Source of the DNA: Chitinophagales bacterium
GTDB taxonomy: Bacteria > Bacteroidota > Bacteroidia > Chitinophagales > JABDMM01
DNA length: 64,000 nt
Direction of reading: 5' to 3'
Assembly (NCBI GenBank): GCA_013001465.1
Contig: JABDMM010000029.1
Coordinates: forward strand, 11,385-75,384
The translations under genes were made by a program, and so were the position numbers. Positions within the stretch are counted from its first letter, which is position 1. Every line of letters starts with the position of its first letter. Shown piece after piece: positions 16,486 through 42,526 of the stretch. The notes beneath the pieces were generated by a model that was not told the origin of the DNA, made no database searches, and saw only the letters and a program-made list of their open reading frames with translations.

Positions 16486-18171
16486 TCAGACCTTTATTTG
16501 GTTTAACTCATTTCTGATTTCATTAGCTAACCTCTCTACGATTCCTTCCTTAAACGGTGATTCGAGTTTGGCTAGTTTAACAAGTTCAAGAAATGAGCGG
16601 CTTCCACCCGCTTCACATAAAGTAAGGTAATCTTGCCATGCAGTTTTATAATCATCCTTCATCTTTAGCCAAAATTGAAAGGCGCATATCTGGGCAAGAG
16701 TATAATCTATGTAATAAAACGGAGTGCTATAAATATGCAGTTGTCGCTGCCAATAACCACCGTTCTCGAGATATTCATTGCCTTCGTAATTCTTGGAAGG
16801 GGTATATTTTTTCTCCAGTTCACGCCACTTTGCATTCCTTTCATCCGGAGTCATATCCGGATTGAGATAAACCTCATGCTGAAATTCATCGACAGTTGCA
16901 CCATATGGAAGAAATAGTAAACTTCCAGCCAGATGATCGAATTTGTACTTGTCCGTCTCTTCTTTAAAGAATAGATGCATCCATGGCCAGGTAAAAAATT
17001 CCATACTCATTGAGTGAATTTCGCAAGCTTCGTATGTAGGCCAGTGATATTCCTGAACTTCGAGGTTTCTAGATGAATAAACCTGAAAAGCATGCCCGGC
17101 TTCATGGGTAAGAACATCAATATCATGAGAGGTGCCATTAAAATTGGAAAAAATAAAAGGTGACTTGTAATTATTGATGAAGGTGCAATAACCACCTGCC
17201 GCTTTTCCTTTCTTGTTGACCAGGTCCATCATCTCATGTTCTCTCATGAAACTAAAAAACTCTCTGGTTTCTTCTGAAAGTTCAGAATACATCTTCATGC
17301 CATTCTCTATAATCCAATCCGGTTCCCCTTTTGGTTTAGGATTGCCGTTTTTGAAAGCGAGAGGAAGATCATAGTACATCAGTTTATCTAAACCAAGTCT
17401 CTTTTCCTGAGCTTCTCTCAATTTGACACAGATCGGTACTATATGTTTTTGGATATTCTCTCGAAACTTTGCCACCATTTCCATATTGTAGTCGGATCTT
17501 AACATTCTCTTATATCCCAGCTCGACAAAATTGTTGTATCCTAACTTCTGTGCAATTCTATGCCGTGTCTTAACCAATTTATCAAATAGCTCGTCAAGTT
17601 TCTCCTTGTTATCTGCCAAAAATTTGAATTTTGCTTCCGATGCTTTCCTTCGAACTTCCCTATCCGTGGATTGGGTAAAAGGTTCGATCCCACTCAAATT
17701 ATAAACCTCACCATTAAATTCAATTTTAGCTGAAGCGATAAGGTTTGTATACTCAGTAGATAGTCTATTCTCTTTAGTTAGGTCATCAATAATCTCTGGT
17801 TCGAAAGTCTTTACCATAAGTTCAGCAATCGTAAATAACTGGTCGCCAAACTTATCTATGAGCCTTGCTTTGTGAGGAGATGCATTGATAGCTCTGTAAA
17901 AATTGTTTTCGAGATCTTCATAATGCGGCATTATCTCATCGAAATAATTTTGCTCTTTCTCATATTGCTCATCCTCTGTGTTAATAGAGTGTCTTACGCT
18001 GGCAATAGATTCATGAGTCCTGAAGTCGTTTCTTAACTCATTTATCTTGTAAAGAATTTCTGACTGCTGCTCAAAAGACTCTGCACTTCGAAAGCTTGCA
18101 GTCAAGTTGCTGTATTCTTTCTTTACAAGCTCTATGTCTGGTCTTTTATATTCTAATTCTGGAAATTTCAT
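16486..18171 (-). CDS. M3-family oligoendopeptidase (PepF-like)
   Basis: 561 aa with the zinc motif HEAGHAFQ and overall PepF-like sequence. Confidence 0.85.
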   Translation of the reverse strand: MKFPELEYKRPDIELVKKEYSNLTASFRSAESFEQQSEILYKINELRNDFRTHESIASVRHSINTEDEQYEKEQNYFDEIMPHYEDLENNFYRAINASPHKARLIDKFGDQLFTIAELMVKTFEPEIIDDLTKENRLSTEYTNLIASAKIEFNGEVYNLSGIEPFTQSTDREVRRKASEAKFKFLADNKEKLDELFDKLVKTRHRIAQKLGYNNFVELGYKRMLRSDYNMEMVAKFRENIQKHIVPICVKLREAQEKRLGLDKLMYYDLPLAFKNGNPKPKGEPDWIIENGMKMYSELSEETREFFSFMREHEMMDLVNKKGKAAGGYCTFINNYKSPFIFSNFNGTSHDIDVLTHEAGHAFQVYSSRNLEVQEYHWPTYEACEIHSMSMEFFTWPWMHLFFKEETDKYKFDHLAGSLLFLPYGATVDEFQHEVYLNPDMTPDERNAKWRELEKKYTPSKNYEGNEYLENGGYWQRQLHIYSTPFYYIDYTLAQICAFQFWLKMKDDYKTAWQDYLTLCEAGGSRSFLELVKLAKLESPFKEGIVERLANEIRNELNQIKV

Positions 18172-18181
18172 ATTGAATAAT

Positions 18182-18706
18182 TTATAGAATTCGTTTGATC
18201 CTTTTGGTGAAAAAGTTAACTATGATAACAATATTCAAAGCGATAACCAACACCAGGCTGCCTATCCCAATGATAAAAACTTCTCTGTAAAGATATTTCA
18301 AAAGTCTGGCTTCTTCACCAGCTGAGATTTCATCCTTTAAATGGTTTGCAAATGACTCTATTTCATAGGAATCCATAACTACCGAGAATTTTTGCAGGTT
18401 TGAAAGGATGAAAACAAACAAATGAATATTCAAGAGAAAAATAATGAGCTTAACCCATTTATTCCGAAAAATCAGAATGTCTTTAAAGAAAACACTATAT
18501 CGGAAATAGGTAATGAAAGTAAATATGATCAGAACATTAAACCAATAAAAAGTATAATGAATAGCTGATGTAACTGGCAATAATATGACGTAAGCTGATA
18601 AGACAGTAACCAGCCACCAAATAGCTTCTCTTAAATATTTTAATTTGTTATTAGACGGATGAAAGTCTGAAGTCAGTTTTTGGCTCATATCACTGGCAGC
18701 CTTCAA
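18182..18706 (-). CDS. Hypothetical 4-5 TM membrane protein
   Basis: 174 aa and hydrophobic. It overlaps the upstream kinase-like gene by 17 nt and lies 10 nt from the M3 peptidase gene. Confidence 0.5.
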   Translation of the reverse strand: MKAASDMSQKLTSDFHPSNNKLKYLREAIWWLVTVLSAYVILLPVTSAIHYTFYWFNVLIIFTFITYFRYSVFFKDILIFRNKWVKLIIFLLNIHLFVFILSNLQKFSVVMDSYEIESFANHLKDEISAGEEARLLKYLYREVFIIGIGSLVLVIALNIVIIVNFFTKRIKRIL

Positions 18707-20576
18707 TGCAATTGCCTTGCAGATTTATGATCTGAGCGATACCGAGAACTGAGACTTTAGCCTTGTCACCACTAAAGGGCTCGGCGCTGTCAAACTTGAA
18801 AGGGATAATTAATTTTCCGCTCCTATCAATATAGCCCCATAAGCCATCTTTTGATACTGCTGCTGTGTTTTGGCTGAAGGACTTAACATAATCGTACTCA
18901 ATTTCTCCCAGAACATTGCCGGCTGTTGAAATAAAGCCCCACTTACCATTTAACCTTACAGCAGCTAGTCCATCAGTAAAATTAGTGACGAAATCATATG
19001 ATGCAGGTATTTGTTCTTTCCCATCCGAATTGATGAATCCCCACTTATTTTCTTTTTTAACCATAGCAAGTCCGCCATCGAACTGACCAATATATTGATA
19101 TCTTGGAGGCATCGTTATGTTTCCTTTACCATCCTTTAAGCCTATCTTACCGTTAGCCGCTGTAAATTGTATTCTTTTATCATCTCTAACCTCAATAGGA
19201 GTTTCCGGCGGAATCTTTATACTCTCATTTGGTTTTGGGTTTTTTTTCTCAGCAACCTCGCCTGTAACCATATCCGTTAACTGGCTTGTAGTTTCGTTGG
19301 AAACTTCAGAATTGGAAGCAGGTTGTGGACTTTGAGAAGCGATCACTTCCAGATCTCCTGCGTCTTTCGTTGCCTCTGCTTTCGAATTCTTATGATTAAT
19401 TACCGATATACTGAAGAAGGTGATCGCAAACAAGCCAATCACAATCCAAAGAACTGACCATGTCCAGTTAAGTGCGGTGTCTGTGCTGTCTGATGACTTT
19501 TCTCTCCAACTCTCTTTTCTCGATGACGGCTGCACTGCCGAGTTTATTTTTTCGATCAAGTCATTCTCTTCATCTAACTGACTCAATTGAACTTCTTGTT
19601 CATCTTCGACAAAAATACTTTCTACCAATTCATTATTGTCGAACTCTGTTTTTGGAGTTTCATTAATTGGCTCAGCCCTAGGTTTGGTATCACTCAAGAT
19701 CACATTACTCGTTTCCTCGGAGACTAAATTTTGCTCTATAAATTGAGATGGAACTTCTGCATTGCCTAAAAGGATATCATATGCATCCTTAACTGACTTA
19801 AGCCTGTTTTGAGGATCCACCTGCAGGCATTGGTCTATGAGGTATCTCACTTTTGGAGACAAATCGGCCGCTATCTGACCATGTAATCCAGAAAGTATGT
19901 TATTCTTTAGCTTTTCAGCGCCTAAAGAATTTACAGAGCCAAATGGCGGTTGGCCCATTATCATCTCAAACAGGATCGCTCCAAATGACCAAATGTCTCC
20001 TGAAACAGACCCCTGCTGTCTTCTAAAGTATTCAGGTGGCAAGTATTCTATAGGATCAGAAGAAAAAACCGGCAATGCAAAACCCTTCAATTTAATTTTA
20101 ATATTGCCTTCCTCGTGTTTGATCAAAATATTTTGAGGCTGTAGGTTACCATGAAACAGCTGATTTGAATGGAGGTAATCCAAGCCTTTTAAAACCTGAA
20201 CTAAAATCTCTTTTTTTAGATCGTTAGACGGGAGAGTTCTTAAATAAACTTCTAGAGTAGATGCACCCTCGAAAAGCTGCTGAACAACTATACAGCATGA
20301 ATCGGAGTCCAGTCCCAGATGGTCGGGTGGTTCTATCTGAAAAGAGCTTTTATACTCAAGTATGTTTGGATGAGCAAGCCAGGTCAGATTCTTAACAGCC
20401 TTCTGAATCTCCTCACCTGCTGTATCGCTTTCCTTGATGAGATCTACAAAAACTTCTCTGTCTGTGACATTATCCCGACCTATAAAAGTAAGTCTGGCAT
20501 CAGATTCGAAAAACTTTCTTTCAAAATTAATGGTCAGAAAAGACTGAGATGAAATGTTTAAATCGGTTGTTGACAT
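18690..20576 (-). CDS. Membrane Ser/Thr protein-kinase homologue (predicted pseudokinase) with C-terminal WG/KWG repeats
   Basis: 628 aa. Kinase-fold motifs are present (HPNILEY, LKGLDYLHS, DIWSFGAILFEMIMGQPPF, DPQNRL), but the HRD position reads HGN and the DFG position reads KGF. One TM helix (VLWIVIGLFAITFFSISVI), then repeats of the form W/KWGFI(N/S)..G....P..YD. Confidence 0.8.
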   Translation of the reverse strand: MSTTDLNISSQSFLTINFERKFFESDARLTFIGRDNVTDREVFVDLIKESDTAGEEIQKAVKNLTWLAHPNILEYKSSFQIEPPDHLGLDSDSCCIVVQQLFEGASTLEVYLRTLPSNDLKKEILVQVLKGLDYLHSNQLFHGNLQPQNILIKHEEGNIKIKLKGFALPVFSSDPIEYLPPEYFRRQQGSVSGDIWSFGAILFEMIMGQPPFGSVNSLGAEKLKNNILSGLHGQIAADLSPKVRYLIDQCLQVDPQNRLKSVKDAYDILLGNAEVPSQFIEQNLVSEETSNVILSDTKPRAEPINETPKTEFDNNELVESIFVEDEQEVQLSQLDEENDLIEKINSAVQPSSRKESWREKSSDSTDTALNWTWSVLWIVIGLFAITFFSISVINHKNSKAEATKDAGDLEVIASQSPQPASNSEVSNETTSQLTDMVTGEVAEKKNPKPNESIKIPPETPIEVRDDKRIQFTAANGKIGLKDGKGNITMPPRYQYIGQFDGGLAMVKKENKWGFINSDGKEQIPASYDFVTNFTDGLAAVRLNGKWGFISTAGNVLGEIEYDYVKSFSQNTAAVSKDGLWGYIDRSGKLIIPFKFDSAEPFSGDKAKVSVLGIAQIINLQGNCIEGCQ

Positions 20577-31107: not shown

Positions 31108-32640
31108 CTAAGCGATAATACTCACTAAAAGATTGTGAAGCTCCTTACGGTCAGCTTTGCCATTTGCATTGCGTGGGAAACGCTCAACATTGTGAACATC
31201 GTGAGGAATCATATAACTAGGCAGTTTGGATTCAAGGTGAGAAATCAACTTCTCCACTCCAATATTTAGATTTTCGACAAGAAGATGAGGTGTCAGGAGG
31301 CCTTTATGGTTTTTAACAGCGATAAAAGCGACTTTCGCATGAGCACCTAAAAAATTGCGGACAACATGTTCTACCTCGCCAGGTTCTACTCTGTAGCCAT
31401 CAAGCTTTAACTGAAAATCTTTTCTGCCTAAGAAAATATAATTCCCTTCTTCATTAAGATATCCAATGTCCCCGGTATCGTATGCTTTCGAACCATTTGA
31501 CAGAACCAGATATGCCTCTTTAGTCTTCTCTTCATCCTTCCAATATCCATCTGTAACTTGCTTACTACAAAGAGCGATGATTCCTTTTTCACCAGGAGAA
31601 AGAATATTGTGATCCTGGTCTAAAATATAGAATTCCATACCTGGCACAGGTTTACCTATAGGAACAACTCCATTAACCGCTTGTGAAAATGATTCATCGT
31701 TTGACCAGACATACATTGAAGAAGCGCCCGGGCACTCAGAGGGTCCATATATATTTTGAATGATAGCATCCTCTGATAAGCAAGATGACCACTCCACCAT
31801 CAATTCATGTAAAAGAGGTTCACCACAAAACATACTATATCTCAAGGCTGGAAGTTGTAGTTCCTTAATGTAGGGTTTGATATATAACAATGTTGATGGG
31901 ACCAGCATTGAAACAGTGATGTCATGGTCAAGTAGTATGCTTATTATATTATAATACTTAATACCTTCTTCAGGAACAACAAAGCAACTCGCTCCCATAG
32001 AAAGGGGGATGAAGGTCATCATTCCTGCCAGATCAAAGGTCCAATCAAACATTTGGAGAAATCTGTCATCGCTGGAAAGATCATATTGCGATTTGTCAAA
32101 GTATAGTGTAATGAAGTGAGCAAGATTAACGTGCTTCACTAAAACTCCCTTGGGGCGGCCGGTGCTACCTGAGGTGAATAGCATGTATGCAAAGCTGTCA
32201 GCATCAATTTCATTAACAAAAACATCACAATCATCACCTGTTTCAACAGATGTAAGATCGATGCTGCAAAGACCAGCAGCTTTTATATCATATGAATGTT
32301 TTGAAATTTGTAACGGTAGATCACAGTATAACATTACCGAGATCTCAGACTCCTCTATTATTTCCTTAAACCTGTCGTATGGGTTATGCCTGTTTATCGG
32401 TATATACGGAATTCCTGACATTACCAGTGCGATGATTGCCGCATAAGTATGAACATCCTGACCGGTAATTACACCAACAAAGTTCTGATGATTGAAATTT
32501 CTTTCTGCAAACTCTTTTTGGTAGTTCGCCACCAGATTACCTAGGTCATTATAGGTATACCTCTCATTATTGCAGAATAATGCAAGATTACCTCCATGGT
32601 TTTGGAAGCTCTCAATAAAATATTCTGGCAATAGTTTCAT
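31108..32640 (-). CDS. Stand-alone NRPS/DltA-type adenylation enzyme (amino-acid activating)
   Basis: 510 aa with A-domain core motifs: YMLFTSGSTGRPKGV (A3), TFDLAG (A4, Asp retained), NIYGPSE (A5), YDTGDIG (A7), GRKDFQLKLDGYRVEPGEVE (A8), NGKADRKEL (A10). No fused T or C domain. Confidence 0.8.
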   Translation of the reverse strand: MKLLPEYFIESFQNHGGNLALFCNNERYTYNDLGNLVANYQKEFAERNFNHQNFVGVITGQDVHTYAAIIALVMSGIPYIPINRHNPYDRFKEIIEESEISVMLYCDLPLQISKHSYDIKAAGLCSIDLTSVETGDDCDVFVNEIDADSFAYMLFTSGSTGRPKGVLVKHVNLAHFITLYFDKSQYDLSSDDRFLQMFDWTFDLAGMMTFIPLSMGASCFVVPEEGIKYYNIISILLDHDITVSMLVPSTLLYIKPYIKELQLPALRYSMFCGEPLLHELMVEWSSCLSEDAIIQNIYGPSECPGASSMYVWSNDESFSQAVNGVVPIGKPVPGMEFYILDQDHNILSPGEKGIIALCSKQVTDGYWKDEEKTKEAYLVLSNGSKAYDTGDIGYLNEEGNYIFLGRKDFQLKLDGYRVEPGEVEHVVRNFLGAHAKVAFIAVKNHKGLLTPHLLVENLNIGVEKLISHLESKLPSYMIPHDVHNVERFPRNANGKADRKELHNLLVSIIA

Positions 32641-32675: not shown

Positions 32676-33020
32676 TTACGCTCTGTTGTTTTCATCCGGA
32701 AAAACGATCTTGGGTTGGATATTTTTAGCTTTGTCTTTTTCTACAAGGCCGTAACTTAACACAATAACGATATCGCCAACTTCGGCCTTTCTTGCAAGAG
32801 GTCCGTTGAGACATATAACTCCACTTCCGCGCTCCCCTTTTAATACATATGTTTCAGACCGTTCTCCATTATTGACATTACAGATCAGTACTTGCTCACC
32901 TTCTATCAAGTCGGCTTTATCCATTAGATCTTCATCTATGGTAATACTGCCAATATAGTTAAGCTCAGTTTCAGTTATTCTGGCTCTGTGAATTTTAGAT
33001 TTCAGTACTGATATAAGCAT
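32676..33020 (-). CDS. panD: Aspartate 1-decarboxylase proenzyme
   Basis: 114 aa. The start is LKSKIHRARITETELNYIGSITID, with the Gly-Ser self-cleavage site. It aligns along its length with E. coli PanD from memory. Confidence 0.9.
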   Translation of the reverse strand: MLISVLKSKIHRARITETELNYIGSITIDEDLMDKADLIEGEQVLICNVNNGERSETYVLKGERGSGVICLNGPLARKAEVGDIVIVLSYGLVEKDKAKNIQPKIVFPDENNRA

Positions 33021-33038: not shown

Positions 33039-34298
33039 TCATGATCTTCCCTCATTCTCATCTTTAGCTCCTACCAAAACAGCCATGCTGCCGGGTAGAT
33101 GTTTATTATCATACATCTTTTGAACACTATCGCCTATTTTATCATATGGAAAAACTTCAGAAACGATGGGTTCAATTTCTTTATTTCTAACTAAGTCATT
33201 AAACAAAGTATGCTCTTCGACACTAGCACCGTGAGACCCTTGTACCCTTTTTTTAAAGATCCATAAAAAACGTAGGTCGAAAGAAGCCATATACCCGGTA
33301 GTTCCTGCACATGTTATTACCATTCCTCCGGGATCACAAACAAATAATGAAGTTGGGAAAGTCATTTCTCCAGGGTGTTCAAGCACTATAAATGGAGCTT
33401 TGCCTCCAGTGATAGTTAGCAGTTCTTTGTTAAAGGCTTTTACACCCTTTCTCCATTCGAGGTATGCCGGGTCGTCCTGAACAGCAGTTTTCAACGCGCC
33501 CCAGTGTGAATAATTACTCCTGTTTATGGTAAGCGCACCTAGCTTTTTACAAAATTCTGCTCTTTCATCACTACTAACTACTGCAACCGGAATACCTCCA
33601 GCTCTCTTGACTAGTTGTATACCCATTACACCAAGCCCCCCGGAACCTCCCCAGATCAAAACCACATCTCCCTTTTTAACGGTATGTGGATGGTGGTGTA
33701 GCAACATTCGATAAGCGGTTGCACCGGAAAGCATATAGACAGAGGACTCCGCCCAGCTTAGATGTTTTGGTTTCGGAACACATTGAAAATGTTTTGCTTT
33801 ACAAAATTGAGCAAACGATCCCCAATTTGTCTCAAAACCCCATGCCCGTAATGTCGTTGAAAGCATATCATCGCCGCCTGCTGCCAGATATGGTTCATTG
33901 GGATCGATATGTGCGGGTAATACAACGATCTCGTCTCCAACAGAGACGTTCTTTACATCTTTTCCAATTTTCCAGACTATACCGGATGCATCAGATCCCG
34001 CTATATGAAAATCGCCATTAGCCTCACCTCTGATTTCTCTTAATTTAATGACATCTACGGGATAGCCTGTTGAGGCCCAAACGCAATTATAGTTGACTCC
34101 CGCAGCTTTTACAGCTATCAGAACTTCATCATCCGCTATTTCTGGTACTTTTATTTTTTCTGGCTTGTAAGCATCTTTAGGCTCCCCGAACCGGTCCTGT
34201 CTTATTACTTGTGCATGCATGTACTCAGGCACTACGCCTAGTTCTGGTAGGCTGCCCACGTCAACAATTTCTACTTTATCAATTTTAGAACTTTCCAT
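33039..34298 (-). CDS. Crotonyl-CoA carboxylase/reductase (CCR) family enoyl-CoA reductase
   Basis: 419 aa, aligned by eye to Streptomyces CCR. Shared stretches include AAGVNYNCVW, AWGFETNWGSFAQF...PKPKHLSWAE, VLIWGGSGGLG and GSHGAS. The Asn, Phe-Glu and His positions of the CO2 pocket appear conserved. Confidence 0.75.
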   Translation of the reverse strand: MESSKIDKVEIVDVGSLPELGVVPEYMHAQVIRQDRFGEPKDAYKPEKIKVPEIADDEVLIAVKAAGVNYNCVWASTGYPVDVIKLREIRGEANGDFHIAGSDASGIVWKIGKDVKNVSVGDEIVVLPAHIDPNEPYLAAGGDDMLSTTLRAWGFETNWGSFAQFCKAKHFQCVPKPKHLSWAESSVYMLSGATAYRMLLHHHPHTVKKGDVVLIWGGSGGLGVMGIQLVKRAGGIPVAVVSSDERAEFCKKLGALTINRSNYSHWGALKTAVQDDPAYLEWRKGVKAFNKELLTITGGKAPFIVLEHPGEMTFPTSLFVCDPGGMVITCAGTTGYMASFDLRFLWIFKKRVQGSHGASVEEHTLFNDLVRNKEIEPIVSEVFPYDKIGDSVQKMYDNKHLPGSMAVLVGAKDENEGRS

Positions 34299-34311: not shown

Positions 34312-35868
34312 TTATTGAACCGCTTTGTCTTTTCCTTCCCAAAAAGGAGCTCTTAGCTTTCTTCGCAACAATTTCCCTCTTGGGCTACGCGGTAATTCGT
34401 TTTTCCACTCTACCCTTATAGGTCTTTTGTATTCCGGTAAATGGTCGATACACCAGTTCAGTAAGTCTTTGTCATCCATTTCGCCATTAAATGGAACAGC
34501 AATAACGCAAAGCCCTTCACCATATAAATCATGAGGAATTCCGACAACTGCGACATCTTTTATCCTGGGATGCTTCAGCAATTCTTTTTCAACCTCGGCC
34601 GGGAAAATATTGATCCCTCTTGAGACGATCATATCATTTATCCTATCCACAAGAAATAGATAGCCCTCACTGTCTAAAAACCCTACATCACCCGAATGAA
34701 ACCATCCTTGGTCGTCAAACATTTTTTCATTTCGTTCTTCAAGGTTCCAGTATCCATCAATTACATTTGGCCCTCTCAAACATACCTCCCCGGATTCATT
34801 TGTTCCGGCTATGGATCCGTCAGCTTTCATAATAACAAGCTCAACGTCATGAAGTGGTCGACCAACAGACTTTATAATGTCTTGATACTTTGAATCTTTA
34901 TCATTCATATAGTTTACATGATCATCGAACCTTAAAAGAGTAGATATCCCTGTGGTTTCAGTTAGGCCATATCCCTGCGTCATATAGCATTCAAACAGTT
35001 CAATGGCTTTGGCAATTACATTTAACGTGGAAGGCGAACCTCCATATTGAATATGCTGAAGAGAAGAGAAATCATATACTTCTGAGCCTTTCATCTCGAC
35101 AATAGATTGCATCATAACCGGAGCGAGGTGTCCGTTTGTTACTTTATATTCCTGTACGGCCTCACAAAAGCCTTTTGGACTAAACATTTCCAGCAATACA
35201 TTGGTACAGCCCACATACAGTCCAAGTATAAAAAACCCAATCCCGGGCATGCTATGTAGTTTGGCTTCAACAAGATTGACAGAACTTGATCCCAGGCATG
35301 GCGTCTCGTTCACTACTTTATTCAATTCAAAGAATAGGTTTGCATTTGAAATAGGGACGCCTTTTGGATAGCCTGTAGTGCCTGATGTATAAAGATGAAA
35401 TAGACAGTCTTTTGTGTTTACTTCAACATTCAAATTTTCTGTTTTGTCCTTGTATTCCTTCTGAATCTTCGGATAAAGTGTTTCAAGAACATGTGAAGGG
35501 ACATTAAATTCTCGATTAGCGTCTTTAACCACCTTTTCGAAATACTCGCTATAAAATACGTGTTTAACTGTTGAGTCCTTTATTACATGGGCCAACTCAT
35601 CAGAATTGTATTCGTAGTTAAGTGGGACTGGAATAATACCTGCATTTATTGCAGCATGAAAAAACTGAATTATCAGGTCGTTGTTGAGATCAAGTATTCC
35701 AATTCGATCCCCTTTTTTGAGACCCAGATCAGTGAAATAATGAGCAACTCTATTTATGTCGTTGTTGAATTCTTTATAGCTAAAGACTTTGTCCTCGAAC
35801 ATATATGCTGTTCTAAGGGGATGAGCCCCGGCTCTGTATTCTATTAACGATTTAAATGTTTCGGCCAT
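34312..35868 (-). CDS. ANL-family acyl-CoA synthetase / AMP-dependent ligase
   Basis: 518 aa. Motifs LYTSGTTGYPKGV, GYGLTETT, FHSGDVGFLDSEGYLFLVDRINDMI and PRSPRGKLLRR. Confidence 0.85.
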   Translation of the reverse strand: MAETFKSLIEYRAGAHPLRTAYMFEDKVFSYKEFNNDINRVAHYFTDLGLKKGDRIGILDLNNDLIIQFFHAAINAGIIPVPLNYEYNSDELAHVIKDSTVKHVFYSEYFEKVVKDANREFNVPSHVLETLYPKIQKEYKDKTENLNVEVNTKDCLFHLYTSGTTGYPKGVPISNANLFFELNKVVNETPCLGSSSVNLVEAKLHSMPGIGFFILGLYVGCTNVLLEMFSPKGFCEAVQEYKVTNGHLAPVMMQSIVEMKGSEVYDFSSLQHIQYGGSPSTLNVIAKAIELFECYMTQGYGLTETTGISTLLRFDDHVNYMNDKDSKYQDIIKSVGRPLHDVELVIMKADGSIAGTNESGEVCLRGPNVIDGYWNLEERNEKMFDDQGWFHSGDVGFLDSEGYLFLVDRINDMIVSRGINIFPAEVEKELLKHPRIKDVAVVGIPHDLYGEGLCVIAVPFNGEMDDKDLLNWCIDHLPEYKRPIRVEWKNELPRSPRGKLLRRKLRAPFWEGKDKAVQ

Positions 35869-35882
35869 TTTGTTGCGATTGT

Positions 35883-36881
35883 TTATTCAGGGACAACGTA
35901 AAGTGCTGAACCACCAGAAAACCCTGCCCCTGCTGTAAGCATTAATATGGTTTGTCCTGGTTTAAGATCTCTTTTTTCGTATACGGAATTCAGAGTAAAT
36001 GGTATAGTTCCGGCCATGCTATTACCCATAATGTCTATAGTTACTTCCATTTTCTCCAAAGGAATCTCCAAAGCTTCTGCGACTTTTTTCATTACATACA
36101 TGTTTGCCTGATGCATAACAAAATAATCTACATCACCTGGTTTAATTCCATATGAACTACATACCTTTTCTCCAAGGTTTTTCATAACTGCTACAGCTCT
36201 TTGAAGAAACTCTTTACTATCAATCGTCATAATAGTACCATGCAATCCATCATCGAGTGTTTTATGTGTGGGGGGTATAAGGCTTCCACCAGCAGGGACA
36301 TTCAATTTGTCGATCCCGTAGCCATCTTGCCACAATGCAATTTCCATGAACCCTTCCTCTGTGGAGCATTTGCTTAAAACAACTGCGCCGGCACCATCAC
36401 CAAAAACGGGGATAAATCTTTCATCCTTTTTAGTAAGGAAACGAGATTTTATATCGGCACCTGCAACGAGAACATATTCTGCACCGGTTGCTAATAATCG
36501 TACAGCTCTGTCTAACGCATAAACAAAAGATGCACAAGCATTAACTGTATCTTCTGCAGGGCATGTCGCACCAAGAATGTGCTGAATCCTACCTGCGGCA
36601 GCAAGGCTAGTATAATCTGCCGTACCGGTTCCAAGAATAATTCTGTCGAGTTGCTCTGGTTTGATATTGGCGCGCTCCATAGCTATTTTACAGGCTTCCG
36701 CCGCCATGTGGCTCGTTCCTGTACCTTCATCAGCCCAATGTCTTGTGGTTATACCTACTACTTTTTCGATATACTCAGGATCCAGATCCAGATCCCATGC
36801 ATCGATCACTTCCTGATTGGTTACAGGTTTGCCCGGCAAATGACCACCGGTTCCGATAATTTTAACTCCCCAACCTTTCAT
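35883..36881 (-). CDS. FabH-like beta-ketoacyl synthase III
   Basis: 332 aa. Cys-His-Asn triad motifs NACASFVYAL, MHQANMYV and MGNSMAGT, with a C-terminal GAGFSGGSA. Confidence 0.85.
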   Translation of the reverse strand: MKGWGVKIIGTGGHLPGKPVTNQEVIDAWDLDLDPEYIEKVVGITTRHWADEGTGTSHMAAEACKIAMERANIKPEQLDRIILGTGTADYTSLAAAGRIQHILGATCPAEDTVNACASFVYALDRAVRLLATGAEYVLVAGADIKSRFLTKKDERFIPVFGDGAGAVVLSKCSTEEGFMEIALWQDGYGIDKLNVPAGGSLIPPTHKTLDDGLHGTIMTIDSKEFLQRAVAVMKNLGEKVCSSYGIKPGDVDYFVMHQANMYVMKKVAEALEIPLEKMEVTIDIMGNSMAGTIPFTLNSVYEKRDLKPGQTILMLTAGAGFSGGSALYVVPE

Positions 36882-36905: not shown

Positions 36906-37952
36906 TTAGACTCTGATCAACAATCCGCCCCAGGAAATTCCTCCCCCAACGACAGACATCATTAATAAGTCGTCCTTTTTAATAGTTTCTGATTTAATTG
37001 CTTTGTGAAGCGCCAGCAGTGAACTTACTGCACCACAATTAGCATATTCAGAAACTACATTTACCACTTTTTCGGTCGGTATATTTGCTTTTTCAGTAGC
37101 AAGTAAAACCGTTTTTTTCGTTGATTGGTGTGGTATAAAACAATCGACGTCTTCCGGCTTAATATTGGCATGCCGATATAATTTGTCCGGGAGCCATTCC
37201 CAGATCTGATTCATATAAGCTGTAGCCTTTGGTGCCATCAACATCAGGTATTCGTTATTCTTGATCGCTTTTTCAGTTGGAGGAAGAGCACCTTGTACAC
37301 CATACATCGAAGCATAATGGCCATCAGAGTCTAGATAAGAAAGCAACAACTTGCTTCCATTTTTTTCAACTCTGGATAAAACAACTGCTGCAGCCGCATC
37401 TCCTCCCGCGAATACTTGATTTGTGTTAAAATCTGCAATTTTAGAAAATGTTTCTGCAGACACAATAAGCACATTCTTCAGACCGCTCTGAAGACTTAAA
37501 AAACCCAACGTCATTGCATAAAGATTGGAAGCACATCCGGTTTTCATTTCGAAAGATGCGCATTTCATTCCTAACTGTCCACCAACATATGTCGCAGTTG
37601 AGGAGGTATATCTTGGCGATGTCGTTGTAACTGAAATCAAAAGATCTATATCTTCTGGTAATAATTCTGCATCGTGCAAAGCATTCTTAATCGCATGATA
37701 CATCATATCCACAGAAGTGGCTTCATTCTCAGTAAGCACGTGACCAGGGGTGTGAACCCAAAACCGCTTACTGAAACCCCATTTATCCTCTATATAATTT
37801 TTATCTATTCCAATGTCAAGCAATTTGGTCTTCCAATCTGCTCCGTATTTCAGATTATATATATCCTCGTTGCTGACCCATTTACCCAACTCTTCCGGGA
37901 ATGCTGTGGCAATTCCCTTGATTTCTACATTGCTCAAATTCTCTATATACAT
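36906..37952 (-). CDS. Divergent KASIII/thiolase-fold condensing enzyme
   Basis: 348 aa. Motifs TGCASNLYAM (Cys), IPHQSTKK (His) and YANCGAVSS (Asn). It is more divergent than the neighbouring FabH-like gene. Confidence 0.7.
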   Translation of the reverse strand: MYIENLSNVEIKGIATAFPEELGKWVSNEDIYNLKYGADWKTKLLDIGIDKNYIEDKWGFSKRFWVHTPGHVLTENEATSVDMMYHAIKNALHDAELLPEDIDLLISVTTTSPRYTSSTATYVGGQLGMKCASFEMKTGCASNLYAMTLGFLSLQSGLKNVLIVSAETFSKIADFNTNQVFAGGDAAAAVVLSRVEKNGSKLLLSYLDSDGHYASMYGVQGALPPTEKAIKNNEYLMLMAPKATAYMNQIWEWLPDKLYRHANIKPEDVDCFIPHQSTKKTVLLATEKANIPTEKVVNVVSEYANCGAVSSLLALHKAIKSETIKKDDLLMMSVVGGGISWGGLLIRV

Positions 37953-38961: not shown

Positions 38962-39360
38962 CTATTCTGAAACATAATTCTCCATGATTGAATGAATGCG
39001 TCTGGTGTCACTATATACCTGCCAATATTCGATTTGGTTTCCTTTAATTTGTATCCGCCAGGCACAGGGTTGCCTCCATTTGTGATCTTTGTTCTCGCTT
39101 CCCATGTAGCTTCCGGAAGCAAAACCGAATAATCCAACCAAATCGCCCTCCAGAAAATAATTTTCTACTTCTATAAAGTAATCAGGAAACCACTGGAAAT
39201 AGGACTTCCAGTTTTGAAGCATCATCGACCTACCTTTAAACATCTTACCGCCAGCATCGACATAACGATGATTTTCAGTCATCAATGATTCCAGGGATTC
39301 AATATCTTTCTGGTTAATTGATTGAATAAATTGAAGGACGACATCTATAGGATCGGCCAT
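38962..39360 (-). CDS. NTF2-like (SnoaL-like) domain protein
   Basis: 132 aa. The pattern VLQFIQSINQKDIESLESLMTENHRYVD is typical of SnoaL/NTF2-like proteins. Confidence 0.55.
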   Translation of the reverse strand: MADPIDVVLQFIQSINQKDIESLESLMTENHRYVDAGGKMFKGRSMMLQNWKSYFQWFPDYFIEVENYFLEGDLVGLFGFASGSYMGSENKDHKWRQPCAWRIQIKGNQIEYWQVYSDTRRIHSIMENYVSE

Positions 39361-39974: not shown

Positions 39975-41354
39975 TTAAGCAGGGCCTTCATACTCAGAAA
40001 CTACGAATCTTAGCTTTCCACTTGATGTGCGTTCAATTTTATCTACATATCTGATATCGAAGTAATCCGCATCTAATCTTGAACGGATCTCCTGGATAAG
40101 ACTTTCTTCGTCATTCTGTTGATAGCTTGAAGACTTTACCACATCAAAGTGAATGAATCCATCCTTCTCCTGGACAATTCTCGCTTCGACTACATTGATC
40201 ATGTCCTTGAAAATATGGTCCATTCTCCCGATTTTAGTTCCATTGCGCAATGTCACGAAATCTTCGCTTCTTCCATCAACCCTGTCTACAATTCGACTCT
40301 CTCTACCACACTGACATTTGTGATTTGCTGTAATTGTTGCTACATCATTTGTATCGTATCGCAGAAAAAACATTGCGGGGTTAGAAAATGAGCTGCCTAC
40401 AATCCTATATTGATCTTTCTGGCCTTGGATAGGAATGAATTCCACAAATGAGTAGTCCTCATCAACATGCATATTGCCATATTCACATTCTGAAATGTTT
40501 GCCACAGGTTCTGACAATCCATAATGTTGTATCGGGCTAACGCCGAAAGCTTCTTTTATCAATCTCTTGTGACTTTCAAGAAGATTTTCGGCGCCGATAG
40601 ACACCTTCTTGACCTTGTGTTCAAACCGCAATCCATTCTCCAACATAAGAGAAGCTAAATTGGAAAGGAATGAGGGATAACCGTGAAACCAGCTAATTTT
40701 TTCATGATTAATTTTATCAATGTATGCAGGGAGGGTTTTCTTGTTGAGGTGATACATGCTGAACATATGTCTTTTGGTTGCCTTAACGGTTCTCCAATAT
40801 GGCGGTTTCGATTGATTTATCGGTACAATTGTACGGCCTCCAAAAAAAGCGACCCATGTTGCGAACCCGATCCCCCTATTCATTCTAAATCTCCACCAGA
40901 CTGCCCATTTCTCTTGTTCACAGCTTACTGACTCAGGATAGATCAGTCCGGCACCGGTGGTACCCGAGGTATGGGTGATTAAGTGCGGGTGGCTTTTATA
41001 GTTATCGTTTACAACTTGATCAATATTCTCTCTTATTGAAGTTTTCGTAGTGATGGGCAGCTTCTCAATACCTTTGAGATCAGAAAGCTCTGAAGGTTCA
41101 AAACCAACTTCTTTAAATAGTCTTCTATAATATATTGAATGTTGTTGAGCGCGTATTAAGTTGTCTTTCAAGCGTTCAATTTGTAATTGCTTTAATTTAT
41201 CGATGGGCCATCTATCCCTATATCTTATTGAATCTAGTATTCGAAAGAATTCTTTATTATAACGGCGCTTAACCATTCTCTTTCCGTATAATTCGATTAG
41301 AATTTTCTGTATAAAAAGAGGTGATTGGTGGTATATTCGTTCGGTCATATTCAT
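39975..41354 (-). CDS. Phenylacetate-CoA ligase-like (CapK/F390-synthetase family) adenylate-forming enzyme
   Basis: 459 aa. TSGTTGAG P-loop-like motif with a PaaK/CapK-like size and layout. Confidence 0.7.
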   Translation of the reverse strand: MNMTERIYHQSPLFIQKILIELYGKRMVKRRYNKEFFRILDSIRYRDRWPIDKLKQLQIERLKDNLIRAQQHSIYYRRLFKEVGFEPSELSDLKGIEKLPITTKTSIRENIDQVVNDNYKSHPHLITHTSGTTGAGLIYPESVSCEQEKWAVWWRFRMNRGIGFATWVAFFGGRTIVPINQSKPPYWRTVKATKRHMFSMYHLNKKTLPAYIDKINHEKISWFHGYPSFLSNLASLMLENGLRFEHKVKKVSIGAENLLESHKRLIKEAFGVSPIQHYGLSEPVANISECEYGNMHVDEDYSFVEFIPIQGQKDQYRIVGSSFSNPAMFFLRYDTNDVATITANHKCQCGRESRIVDRVDGRSEDFVTLRNGTKIGRMDHIFKDMINVVEARIVQEKDGFIHFDVVKSSSYQQNDEESLIQEIRSRLDADYFDIRYVDKIERTSSGKLRFVVSEYEGPA

Positions 41355-41404: not shown

Positions 41405-42526
41405 ATGAAGAAAAAAATCCTAATGATCGGCCCTTGCAGGGGTCATAATATACAAAGGTATCTGGATGTCTTTCAAAAAGATAAGGACCTTTATGACTTT
41501 GCCTTTGCAAACTACCATCCAAAGCGTGAGTTTTCAAGTCGCAGCTATCCCGGCCTTGAAATTTTTGATGTTTGGAATGTTTTTAAGCTGCTCTTGAGGT
41601 TATTAAGAAATAATGATATCCTCTGGATTCATATGCATGTTCCAATACCATTGATACTTTTCGCCTTGATTTTTCGAAATAGGAAATCTGTTGTAAACTA
41701 TAATATCTGGGGCGAGTCCATTCCACGAGTTGCATCTGGTAAAGGATTAAAGGCTGGAATATACCGATTCATAATGCGTGAAGCGGATCACGTCATGTGC
41801 CCATGGTATGCTACTTATGAAATAATAAAAGAGAACATAGGTGGAGTTAATGCCTTTGTTCACCCTATGGGAATGAATGGTGAATTTTTTGATCTTGAAA
41901 CCAAACAAGAACTTCAGTCAGAAACTCAGCAGTTTTTAAATACACTTCCAAATGATGTCACTAAATTATATTTTCCAAAGAGCTTTTCGAACGCTAGTGA
42001 TCACGACTTAATTATAGAGGCTGGTAAAATCTTGTTAGATAAAGGTGTCCGCAACTTCATTATATATTTCTGGATGGGTAACCAGTTGAACCAGGAACTT
42101 GAAGCACTGTACAGACAAAAAATAAGTGAACTGGGGTTAAATGATCACATTTCTATTATACATCATAGTTTTTTGCCGACATATGATATCCAGCAAGTCT
42201 GGCTGAAAATGGATGTTGGGTTGCAGATTGCAATATTCGATCTCTTATCGACCACTATTCTTGAACCAATGTTCCTCGAAAAGGAATTTATCGCCACAGA
42301 TATCGCTCCATATCGAATCATAGAAGAAAAATATAATGTAGACCTTGATCTGATCCCGATGGACAAAAATGCGCTAGCGTCTAGAATGGAAAGGCTGATA
42401 AAGGGCTACAAAACCAACGAACTGATAATGAAAAAAAGAAAGGAGGTAACAGAGACCCATTTCAATACTTACAATAACATTCCTTCGATCGTCAGTTATC
42501 TTATCACCGAGGGAAGAAAAAAGTAA
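41405..42526 (+). CDS. Glycosyltransferase (GT-B, GT4-like)
   Basis: 373 aa. The N-terminus (KILMIGP) and two-domain layout suggest a GT-B fold. Motif support is weak. Confidence 0.5.
   Translation: MKKKILMIGPCRGHNIQRYLDVFQKDKDLYDFAFANYHPKREFSSRSYPGLEIFDVWNVFKLLLRLLRNNDILWIHMHVPIPLILFALIFRNRKSVVNYNIWGESIPRVASGKGLKAGIYRFIMREADHVMCPWYATYEIIKENIGGVNAFVHPMGMNGEFFDLETKQELQSETQQFLNTLPNDVTKLYFPKSFSNASDHDLIIEAGKILLDKGVRNFIIYFWMGNQLNQELEALYRQKISELGLNDHISIIHHSFLPTYDIQQVWLKMDVGLQIAIFDLLSTTILEPMFLEKEFIATDIAPYRIIEEKYNVDLDLIPMDKNALASRMERLIKGYKTNELIMKKRKEVTETHFNTYNNIPSIVSYLITEGRKK

Follow-up and report, generated by a model that had tools for sequence, protein, structure and literature searches.

Crotonyl-CoA carboxylases/reductases (CCRs), or enoyl-CoA carboxylases/reductases (ECRs), rank among the fastest CO2-fixing enzymes known and constitute a standard source of unusual polyketide extender units. 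To our knowledge, the characterised CCRs come nearly all from Actinobacteria, Proteobacteria and myxobacteria. Cinnabaramide biosynthesis uses the 2-octenoyl-CoA carboxylase/reductase CinF, which serves a line of polyketide synthase (PKS) and nonribosomal peptide synthetase (NRPS); AntE, the antimycin CCR, is promiscuous and supplies the AntD PKS; and the Ccr of Methylobacterium extorquens belongs to the ethylmalonyl-CoA (EMC) pathway. In reveromycin biosynthesis, alkylmalonyl-CoA is supplied by RevR, RevS and RevT (PMC5187497). Here we describe a CCR gene (33039-34298, minus strand) in a stretch of 64,000 nucleotides from a Chitinophagales bacterium (contig JABDMM010000029.1, positions 11,385 to 75,384), which we call the window and whose numbering is used throughout. 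The gene lies in a rare four-gene cassette together with two FabH-like ketosynthases (KSIII-A and KSIII-B) and an acyl-CoA ligase-like gene, and this cassette probably builds a branched lipid and is not part of central carbon metabolism. We found no description of it in the literature searched, and the cassette, which appears to be undescribed there, seems a more interesting object than the enzyme itself.

The CCR gene is an intact open reading frame (ORF) of 419 aa with an ATG start. Its product scores 495.1 bits against the NCBIfam equivalog TIGR01751 (crotonyl-CoA carboxylase/reductase; curated cutoff 378.55), in an alignment that spans model positions 3-392 of 398, that is, from end to end. 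It contains the Pfam domains PF08240 (ADH_N) and PF00107 (ADH_zinc_N) of the medium-chain dehydrogenase/reductase (MDR) superfamily, whose fold has two domains and a Rossmann NADPH site. In a comparison with solved structures, carried out with phmmer against PDB sequences, all the best matches were CCRs: 9kva, a 'putative crotonyl-CoA reductase' (E=5e-125, 49.0% identity), AntE (4y0k; 1e-124, 48.8%), M. extorquens Ccr (4gi2; 9e-118, 47.0%), CinF (4a0s; 1e-80, 39.5%), the Streptomyces collinus CCR (4e-73, 38.5%) and Kitasatospora setae Ccr (about 3e-71, 38.4%). AntE is thus the closest characterised solved relative, the uncharacterised 9kva being marginally closer. An AlphaFold2 model built with 32 homologues as input reached a mean pLDDT of 92.1 and a predicted TM-score (pTM) of 0.91, and when it was compared with the PDB by Foldseek, ranks 1 to 21 were all CCR/ECR structures with query TM-scores (TMq) of 0.80-0.94 (0.92 to AntE and 0.86 to CinF). 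A preliminary description of this DNA, which had proposed a CCR in a Bacteroidota genome with a strong alignment along the whole protein, is confirmed by these matches, and the Bacteroidota origin by a 100%-identical protein in the public database, which is encoded on a 92.8-kb contig and named 'MAG: crotonyl-CoA carboxylase/reductase [Chitinophagales bacterium]' (MAG, metagenome-assembled genome). The five stretches that it quoted are also present, namely AAGVNYNCVW (residue 65), AWGFETNWGSFAQF (152), PKPKHLSWAE (175), the NADPH-site motif LIWGGSGGLG (214) and GSHGAS (354). The rarity that it implied was overstated, since NCBI and JGI already label this protein and its Bacteroidota relatives as CCRs. 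The second-nearest homologue among 5.8 billion proteins shares just 60-61% identity, and the enzyme is a divergent new member of a well-known and publicly annotated family. The public version (P0001) has 414 aa while the longest ORF has 419, which makes the start uncertain by five codons (34284-34298).

The CO2 pocket of K. setae Ccr is formed by N81, F170, E171 and H365 (Stoffel et al., PMC6628652), and its F170Y variant carboxylates fully (PMC6628652). To place these residues we fixed the numbering by aligning CinF to the K. setae chains, where the numbering of chain 6na3 minus 2 gives the native one; in 6na3, the second Asn of NYN has number 83, Phe and Glu within WGFE have 172 and 173, and GSH has its His at 367. 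A MAFFT alignment of 126 sequences (the window CCR, five solved CCRs and 120 database homologues) was used together with this numbering, and both place Asn71, Phe155, Glu156 and His356 of the window CCR on N81, F170, E171 and H365. The Asn and the His are invariant in all 126 sequences and the Glu in 125, while the aromatic position is Phe or Tyr throughout. The CO2-binding Asn, Phe/Glu and His that the preliminary description judged to be retained are therefore in place. As all four are kept and Phe or Tyr is tolerated at the aromatic position, the enzyme should carboxylate. The presence of ADH_N and ADH_zinc_N domains would also suit an ordinary non-carboxylating MDR enoyl reductase or quinone oxidoreductase. 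However, the next-best NCBIfam models, those of quinone oxidoreductases and alcohol dehydrogenases, give 93 bits or less against the 495 of the CCR equivalog, and non-CCR enzymes of the MDR superfamily begin only at Foldseek rank 22, with E-values some 8 or more orders of magnitude worse than that of the weakest CCR match. The conserved CO2 pocket, the TIGR01751 score and the Foldseek ranking together effectively exclude a non-carboxylating reductase, which we regard as extremely improbable, and the window gene is predicted with confidence, from its sequence and modelled fold, to encode a genuine NADPH-dependent, CO2-fixing enoyl-CoA carboxylase/reductase.

Which enoyl-CoA it would accept is suggested by two further positions of the active site. 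The residue before the WGFE motif is Ala152 in the window CCR, Ala in CinF, Val in AntE and Ile in the crotonyl-specific enzymes; the one after the catalytic His is Gly357 in the window CCR, Gly in CinF, Val in AntE and Phe in the crotonyl-specific enzymes of K. setae, S. collinus and M. extorquens. The Ile/Phe pair is thus found in K. setae Ccr, in M. extorquens Ccr and in a clade of Leptospira-type CCRs, whereas the window enzyme has Ala/Gly. The enlarged pocket of CinF is reportedly traced, in the paper on its structure, to these two positions (Ala163 and Gly362). At the six positions checked (N, A, F, E, H and G) the window CCR carries the CinF combination. Both enzymes have the same fold, the same four CO2-pocket residues and the same two residues for pocket size; they differ in that CinF is only 39.5% identical, belongs to the actinobacterial clade and serves its PKS-NRPS line, whereas the window CCR stands with free-standing ketosynthases and no PKS. 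That Gly357 stands in the column of V350 of AntE is confirmed by the PDB entry 4y1b ('AntE V350A'), which departs from wild-type 4y0k at precisely this column. The V350G variant of AntE supplies longer and bulkier alkylmalonyl-CoAs (PMC6117356). In this sense, the window CCR naturally carries the Gly that widens the product range of AntE, from which it differs by the two Val residues of the AntE pocket, the AntD PKS that AntE feeds, the phylum and the gene neighbourhood. The pocket would then be wide and of the long-chain, CinF-like type. Since its small residues Ala152 and Gly357 are those of the octenoyl-CoA enzyme CinF, the window CCR probably takes a 2-enoyl-CoA of medium or long chain, or one that is bulky in some other way, and not crotonyl-CoA. 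As a natural CCR with an Ala/Gly pocket, it could also find use in the production of long or bulky alkylmalonyl-CoAs.

The CCR gene is the fourth of six minus-strand genes that form one run with gaps of 13-35 bp, which leave no room for a terminator; within it, the core of KSIII-A, KSIII-B, ligase and CCR has gaps of at most 24 bp. A sigma-70 promoter scan around the operon was uninformative, the sigma-70 pattern not being suited to Bacteroidota. The first cassette gene, KSIII-A (36906-37952, minus strand), encodes a divergent FabH-like ketosynthase of 348 aa with an N-terminal extension, labelled by NCBI as 'hypothetical protein HKN92_02165', in which the catalytic triad Cys140/His275/Asn305 is kept. 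KSIII-B (35883-36881, minus strand; 332 aa; PF08545 and PF08541; 246 bits on PRK09352) has the triad Cys116/His257/Asn287, invariant among cassette orthologues that are 52-55% identical. Its best PDB matches are BioZ and E. coli FabH, at 1e-44 to 1e-48, with OleA at about 1e-10. The third gene (34312-35868, minus strand), 13 bp upstream of the CCR gene, encodes an AMP-dependent acyl-CoA ligase-like enzyme of the ANL family (518 aa; PF00501 and PF13193). Its best NCBIfam model is PRK06187 (long-chain-fatty-acid--CoA ligase), at 408 bits and so under the cutoff of 476, and its nearest solved relatives are fatty-acyl/feruloyl-CoA synthetases and FadD13. It is 40-42% identical to the ligases of other cassettes, with invariant adenylation motifs. 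GC content is flat around the cassette (0.36-0.43 between 26 and 44 kb), without a step at the cassette edges, and this profile shows no sign of a recent acquisition; recent transfer was accordingly set aside.

The cassette is not confined to this genome. The fuller order KSIII (~350 aa), KSIII (~332 aa), FabG-like short-chain dehydrogenase/reductase (SDR), ligase, CCR and DltB-like membrane-bound O-acyltransferase (MBOAT) was found in a metagenome contig (L001), in Parafilimonas MAGs (L002/L007 and L008) and in a 'Bacteroidetes bacterium' (L013). A Leptospirales MAG (L006) has a major facilitator superfamily (MFS) transporter gene followed by KSIII, KSIII, SDR, ligase, CCR and a weak methylmalonyl-CoA-epimerase-like gene, and L021 has KSIII, KSIII, SDR, ligase and CCR followed by a lysophospholipase-like alpha/beta hydrolase. 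Shorter arrangements occur in L015, where a CCR with the Ala/Gly pocket is followed by a convergent MBOAT gene, and in L014, where ligase and CCR are followed by unrelated genes. In the relatives the SDR gene sits between KSIII-B and the ligase, the adjacency of ligase and CCR is preserved in every cassette-bearing relative examined, and the four core proteins of the window are 40-58% identical to their cassette counterparts. The DltB-like MBOAT (L002:8496-9914, L001:11372-12790, L013:9260-10678 and L015:1480-2463) is the commonest sixth cassette gene in Bacteroidota and reaches 147 bits on TIGR04091, under the cutoff; its presence suggests a transfer of the product, or of an acyl group that comes from it, to a membrane or extracytoplasmic acceptor. 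The gene after the CCR in the Leptospirales MAG (L006:9000-9455) encodes a Glyoxalase_4 protein of 151 aa, with 53.7 bits for methylmalonyl-CoA epimerase (cutoff 115), which may epimerise the (2S)-alkylmalonyl-CoA product.

The KSIII-A family is itself rare, with 73 proteins at E<=1e-30 among the same 5.8 billion. It includes the Leptospira isolates sp. 201903070 and 201903071, and a KSIII-A encoded on a 4-kb contig (P0242) is 89% identical to the window protein. Ten 'longest contig' lengths recur unchanged in the match lists of CCR and KSIII-A, which shows that the two genes share contigs. A scan of a genome collection with the KSIII-A alignment returned four loci only, in three Parafilimonas MAGs and one Leptospirales MAG, and a metagenome scan gave four short contigs that offered no useful gene context.

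In a neighbour-joining tree of the aligned CCRs, those with Ala152 (50 of the 126, the window CCR included) form one clade, sister to the large Leptospira-type clade with the Ile/Phe pocket. Every cassette CCR examined falls within the Ala152 clade, of which the window CCR is a long basal branch. Another basal member, in a different lipid context, lies on a Leptospira-like contig (L020, 9001-12679), where the CCR gene is accompanied by those of a fatty-acid desaturase and an MBOAT, and by no KSIII. The distinct clade to which the window CCR belongs is accompanied by free-standing ketosynthases of the FabH type and by membrane acyltransferases, and not by a PKS or the EMC pathway.

These data bear on whether the window CCR could be a primary-metabolism enzyme of an EMC pathway with its remaining genes at other places in the genome. 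EMC enzymes pass the same TIGR01751 equivalog and have the same CO2 pocket, and M. extorquens Ccr is 47% identical to the window protein. In addition, the sister clade is that of the Leptospira CCRs, and the one examined there, the Ile/Phe enzyme P0025, is encoded 4 kb from a B12-dependent mutase gene of the MM_CoA_mutase family, as expected for the EMC pathway; our inspection of the present genome covered 64 kb. However, the window CCR has Ala/Gly where the crotonyl-specific enzymes compared have Ile/Phe, and other phyla preserve the operon in which it is linked to two ketosynthases and a ligase. When the ORFs of the 64-kb window were compared with Pfam and NCBIfam, no B12 (ethylmalonyl-CoA) mutase, epimerase, mesaconyl-CoA (MaoC) hydratase, methylsuccinyl-CoA dehydrogenase or other acyl-CoA dehydrogenase was found, in agreement with the preliminary description, which had reported that mutase, epimerase and mesaconyl-CoA hydratase were missing nearby. 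The EMC reading is disfavoured by pocket, clade and context, and we consider it very unlikely. The conserved synteny, the membership in the Ala152 clade and the CinF-like Ala152/Gly357 pocket argue instead for a role outside the EMC pathway, in the dedicated supply of an extender or branch unit, as the preliminary description had proposed.

A supply role of this kind has a precedent in RevR/S/T, where a CCR is likewise encoded together with a FabH homologue and an acyl-CoA ligase (PMC5187497), a likeness of gene type. The cassette might then serve only to supply a modular PKS, located elsewhere in the genome, with an unusual alkylmalonyl-CoA extender. Nevertheless, known extender cassettes are located inside their PKS clusters, as RevRST is in Streptomyces, whereas the same comparison of window ORFs with Pfam and NCBIfam revealed no PKS and no NRPS module, the other large ORFs annotated in this way being housekeeping and envelope genes only. 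The flanks of L001, L002, L013 and L021 likewise contained no PKS or NRPS module, and in the seven relatives examined no PKS was found within 8-10 kb. The window cassette also differs from RevRST by its two KSIII genes, and the cassettes of relatives by the added FabG-like SDR and an MBOAT, hydrolase or MFS gene; the second ketosynthase and the MBOAT or hydrolase are conserved partners, which counts against the supply of a PKS extender. We therefore find this explanation quite improbable.

The full cassette can also be compared with the OleABCD, LstABCD and NltABCD systems, which make olefins, lipstatin and nocardiolactone, since it has the same kinds of enzymes and a predicted skeleton of the same type, a 2-alkyl-3-oxo/hydroxy acid (bioRxiv 10.1101/856955). 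In a beta-lactone or olefin pathway of this type, the ketosynthase pair would make a 2-alkyl-3-ketoacid, the SDR would reduce it, the ANL enzyme would be a beta-lactone synthetase and the CCR would give the carboxylated partner. The parts of the full cassette, two thiolase-fold enzymes, SDR and ANL, do match nltABCD/lstABCD (bioRxiv 10.1101/856955), and the alpha/beta hydrolase after the CCR in L021 fits as well. Against it, both ketosynthases are FabH-like, and presumably decarboxylative: they match FabH/BioZ at E=1e-38 to 1e-48, and OleA at 5e-9 to 7e-11 with partial coverage, and neither is an OleA-type, non-decarboxylative thiolase. Besides, the best matches of the ANL enzyme are fatty-acyl/feruloyl-CoA synthetases and it looks like a CoA ligase, the L021 hydrolase is lysophospholipase-like, the CCR is an addition to the Ole/Lst/Nlt set, and the window cassette has no SDR and hence no OleD-type reductase. 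A beta-lactone or olefin pathway seems unlikely on this evidence.

We consider that the window CCR is a true carboxylase of a bulky enoyl-CoA and that KSIII-KSIII-ligase-CCR builds an alpha-branched lipid outside the EMC pathway, with a probability of roughly 0.7. The observations behind it are the family, the catalytic and pocket residues, the structure of the operon, its conserved gene order and the lack of EMC and PKS genes in the 64 kb, and we infer from there the chain length, the order of steps, the product and any link to the genes for PanD and adenylation that follow the CCR. In the proposed route, the ligase would make an acyl- or enoyl-CoA. Conceivably it could activate a 2-enoic acid directly, because the nearest solved relatives of the ligase include ligases of alpha,beta-unsaturated acids; alternatively, the enoyl-CoA could come from KSIII-A together with a reductase and a dehydratase of the host, or from beta-oxidation. 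The CCR would convert the (E)-2-enoyl-CoA and CO2 into (2S)-2-alkylmalonyl-CoA, and a FabH-like ketosynthase would carry out the decarboxylative condensation of this alkylmalonyl-CoA with a second acyl-CoA to a 2-alkyl-3-oxoacyl thioester. Where an SDR is present, it would reduce this product to the 3-hydroxy form, which in most relatives would be handled by the MBOAT, hydrolase or transporter. The end product would be an alpha-branched lipid skeleton of the kind made by OleA/NltAB and, likewise, by Pks13 through other routes.

Several points weigh against this proposal. The window cassette lacks the SDR and MBOAT of most relatives, neither of them being found among the annotated ORFs of the window, and it may be incomplete or use host enzymes; in other words, this copy is either a reduced variant or one dependent on enzymes of the host. 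The cassette also has no gene for a dehydratase or an acyl-CoA dehydrogenase by which the enoyl-CoA would be formed. For every cassette member, activity and product are predictions made from the genes, and the absence of EMC and PKS genes covers 64 kb of the genome only. The role of Ala152 in determining chain length leans partly on what the CinF structure paper reportedly found, and the window CCR stands on a long branch, with its nearest homologue 60-61% identical.

A bolder extension, which we put forward only tentatively, is that the cassette constitutes an undescribed PKS-independent route to alpha-alkyl-beta-oxo/hydroxy lipids, 'mycolate-like' or nocardiolactone-like, in Bacteroidota and Leptospirales. 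Here the CCR would replace the AccD4 biotin carboxylase or the non-decarboxylative chemistry of the OleA type, and the MBOAT would attach the branched acyl chain to an acceptor in the envelope; the window version would be a derived one, with the widest pocket and possibly coupled to beta-alanine. If the cassette does make alpha-branched lipids, it would amount to a third biochemical answer, independent of the others, to the 'mycolic' condensation, and its products to a new class of envelope or signalling lipids in Chitinophagales and Leptospirales.

The fifth gene of the run encodes an aspartate 1-decarboxylase, PanD (32676-33020, minus strand; 114 aa; PF02261; TIGR00223 146 bits, cutoff 106), with the Gly24-Ser25 self-cleavage site read directly from the sequence. 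It starts 18 bp downstream of the CCR gene and is probably co-transcribed with the cassette. The CCR gene therefore does lie between an AMP-dependent ligase upstream and PanD downstream, as first described. The sixth gene (31108-32640, minus strand) encodes a stand-alone NRPS-type, DltA-like adenylation enzyme of 510 aa, which scores 269 bits on TIGR01733, under its cutoff of 317, and 238-244 bits on DltA models with cutoffs of 476-560. Its best PDB match is an internal adenylation domain of LgrA (chain residues 1240-1713; 300 bits). A Dlt-type D-alanylation was rejected for this gene, since its DltA scores lie under the cutoffs and the window has neither a carrier protein nor an MBOAT: among all six-frame ORFs of the window, queries with AcpP, DltC and peptidyl carrier protein (PCP) gave no credible carrier protein (best E=0.06), and the DltB-like MBOAT is present only in the cassettes of relatives.

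At the specificity positions 330/331 the adenylation enzyme has Gly/Ala, where most of its family has Ile/Val and Phe/Tyr. Among the 60 closest family members this pair is confined to two PanD-adjacent enzymes, that of the window and that of L009, with no other case, and it would fit a different substrate, possibly beta-alanine. The adenylation enzyme has its nearest relative (52% identity) on the contig L009, which belongs to a related organism whose RpoD-like sigma factor and PanD are 93% and 71% identical to those of the window. The gene order of L009 is DUF5916, PanD and adenylation enzyme, followed on the opposite strand by an HTTM gene and the sigma factor, and the pair (L009:3892-5855) has no ketosynthase, ligase or CCR upstream. 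The arrangement of PanD, adenylation enzyme and sigma factor is common to both genomes; the gene in between in L009 (5862-7214), for an HTTM/vitamin-K-dependent gamma-carboxylase-like membrane protein, is absent from that place in the window.

It is conceivable that the CCR cassette, PanD and the adenylation enzyme form one pathway in this genome, with a beta-alanine-containing product such as a beta-alanyl starter or an ester or amide on the branched acyl chain. In secondary metabolism, PanD homologues are indeed a source of beta-alanine, as KirD is for kirromycin; the six genes share one strand with gaps of 13-35 bp, and the adenylation enzymes of the window and L009 alone share the Gly/Ala code. 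However, the cassette is missing from L009, which keeps PanD, the adenylation gene and rpoD, no other cassette examined has PanD or an adenylation gene, neither a carrier protein nor a condensation enzyme is present, and PanD may simply be the housekeeping gene for pantothenate. A single pathway of this kind is rather doubtful. PanD and the adenylation gene constitute a conserved pair separate from the cassette, beside a housekeeping-type sigma-70 gene, and this pair may be a beta-alanine-activating system. As the pair is kept in L009 without the cassette, adjacency to PanD is weak evidence for the role of the CCR. The preliminary description had drawn on the position between the ligase and PanD for a dedicated extender- or branch-unit role; this interpretation is supported, on stronger grounds than it had given.

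Other genes of the window lie outside the run. The gene at 18690-20576 (minus strand) encodes a fusion of a Ser/Thr protein kinase with WG-containing beta-repeats, and the next two ORFs on the same strand (18182-18706, which overlaps the kinase gene, and 16486-18171) gave no family match. A small SnoaL-like protein with the polyketide-cyclase fold is encoded at 38962-39360 (minus strand), two genes upstream of KSIII-A with an MscS channel gene between them, and it is not next to the cassette in relatives. Finally, 2 kb upstream of the cassette, a gene for a PaaK/FlxY/F390-synthetase-like adenylating enzyme (39975-41354, minus strand) stands back-to-back with that of a GT4-type glycosyltransferase (41405-42526, plus strand).

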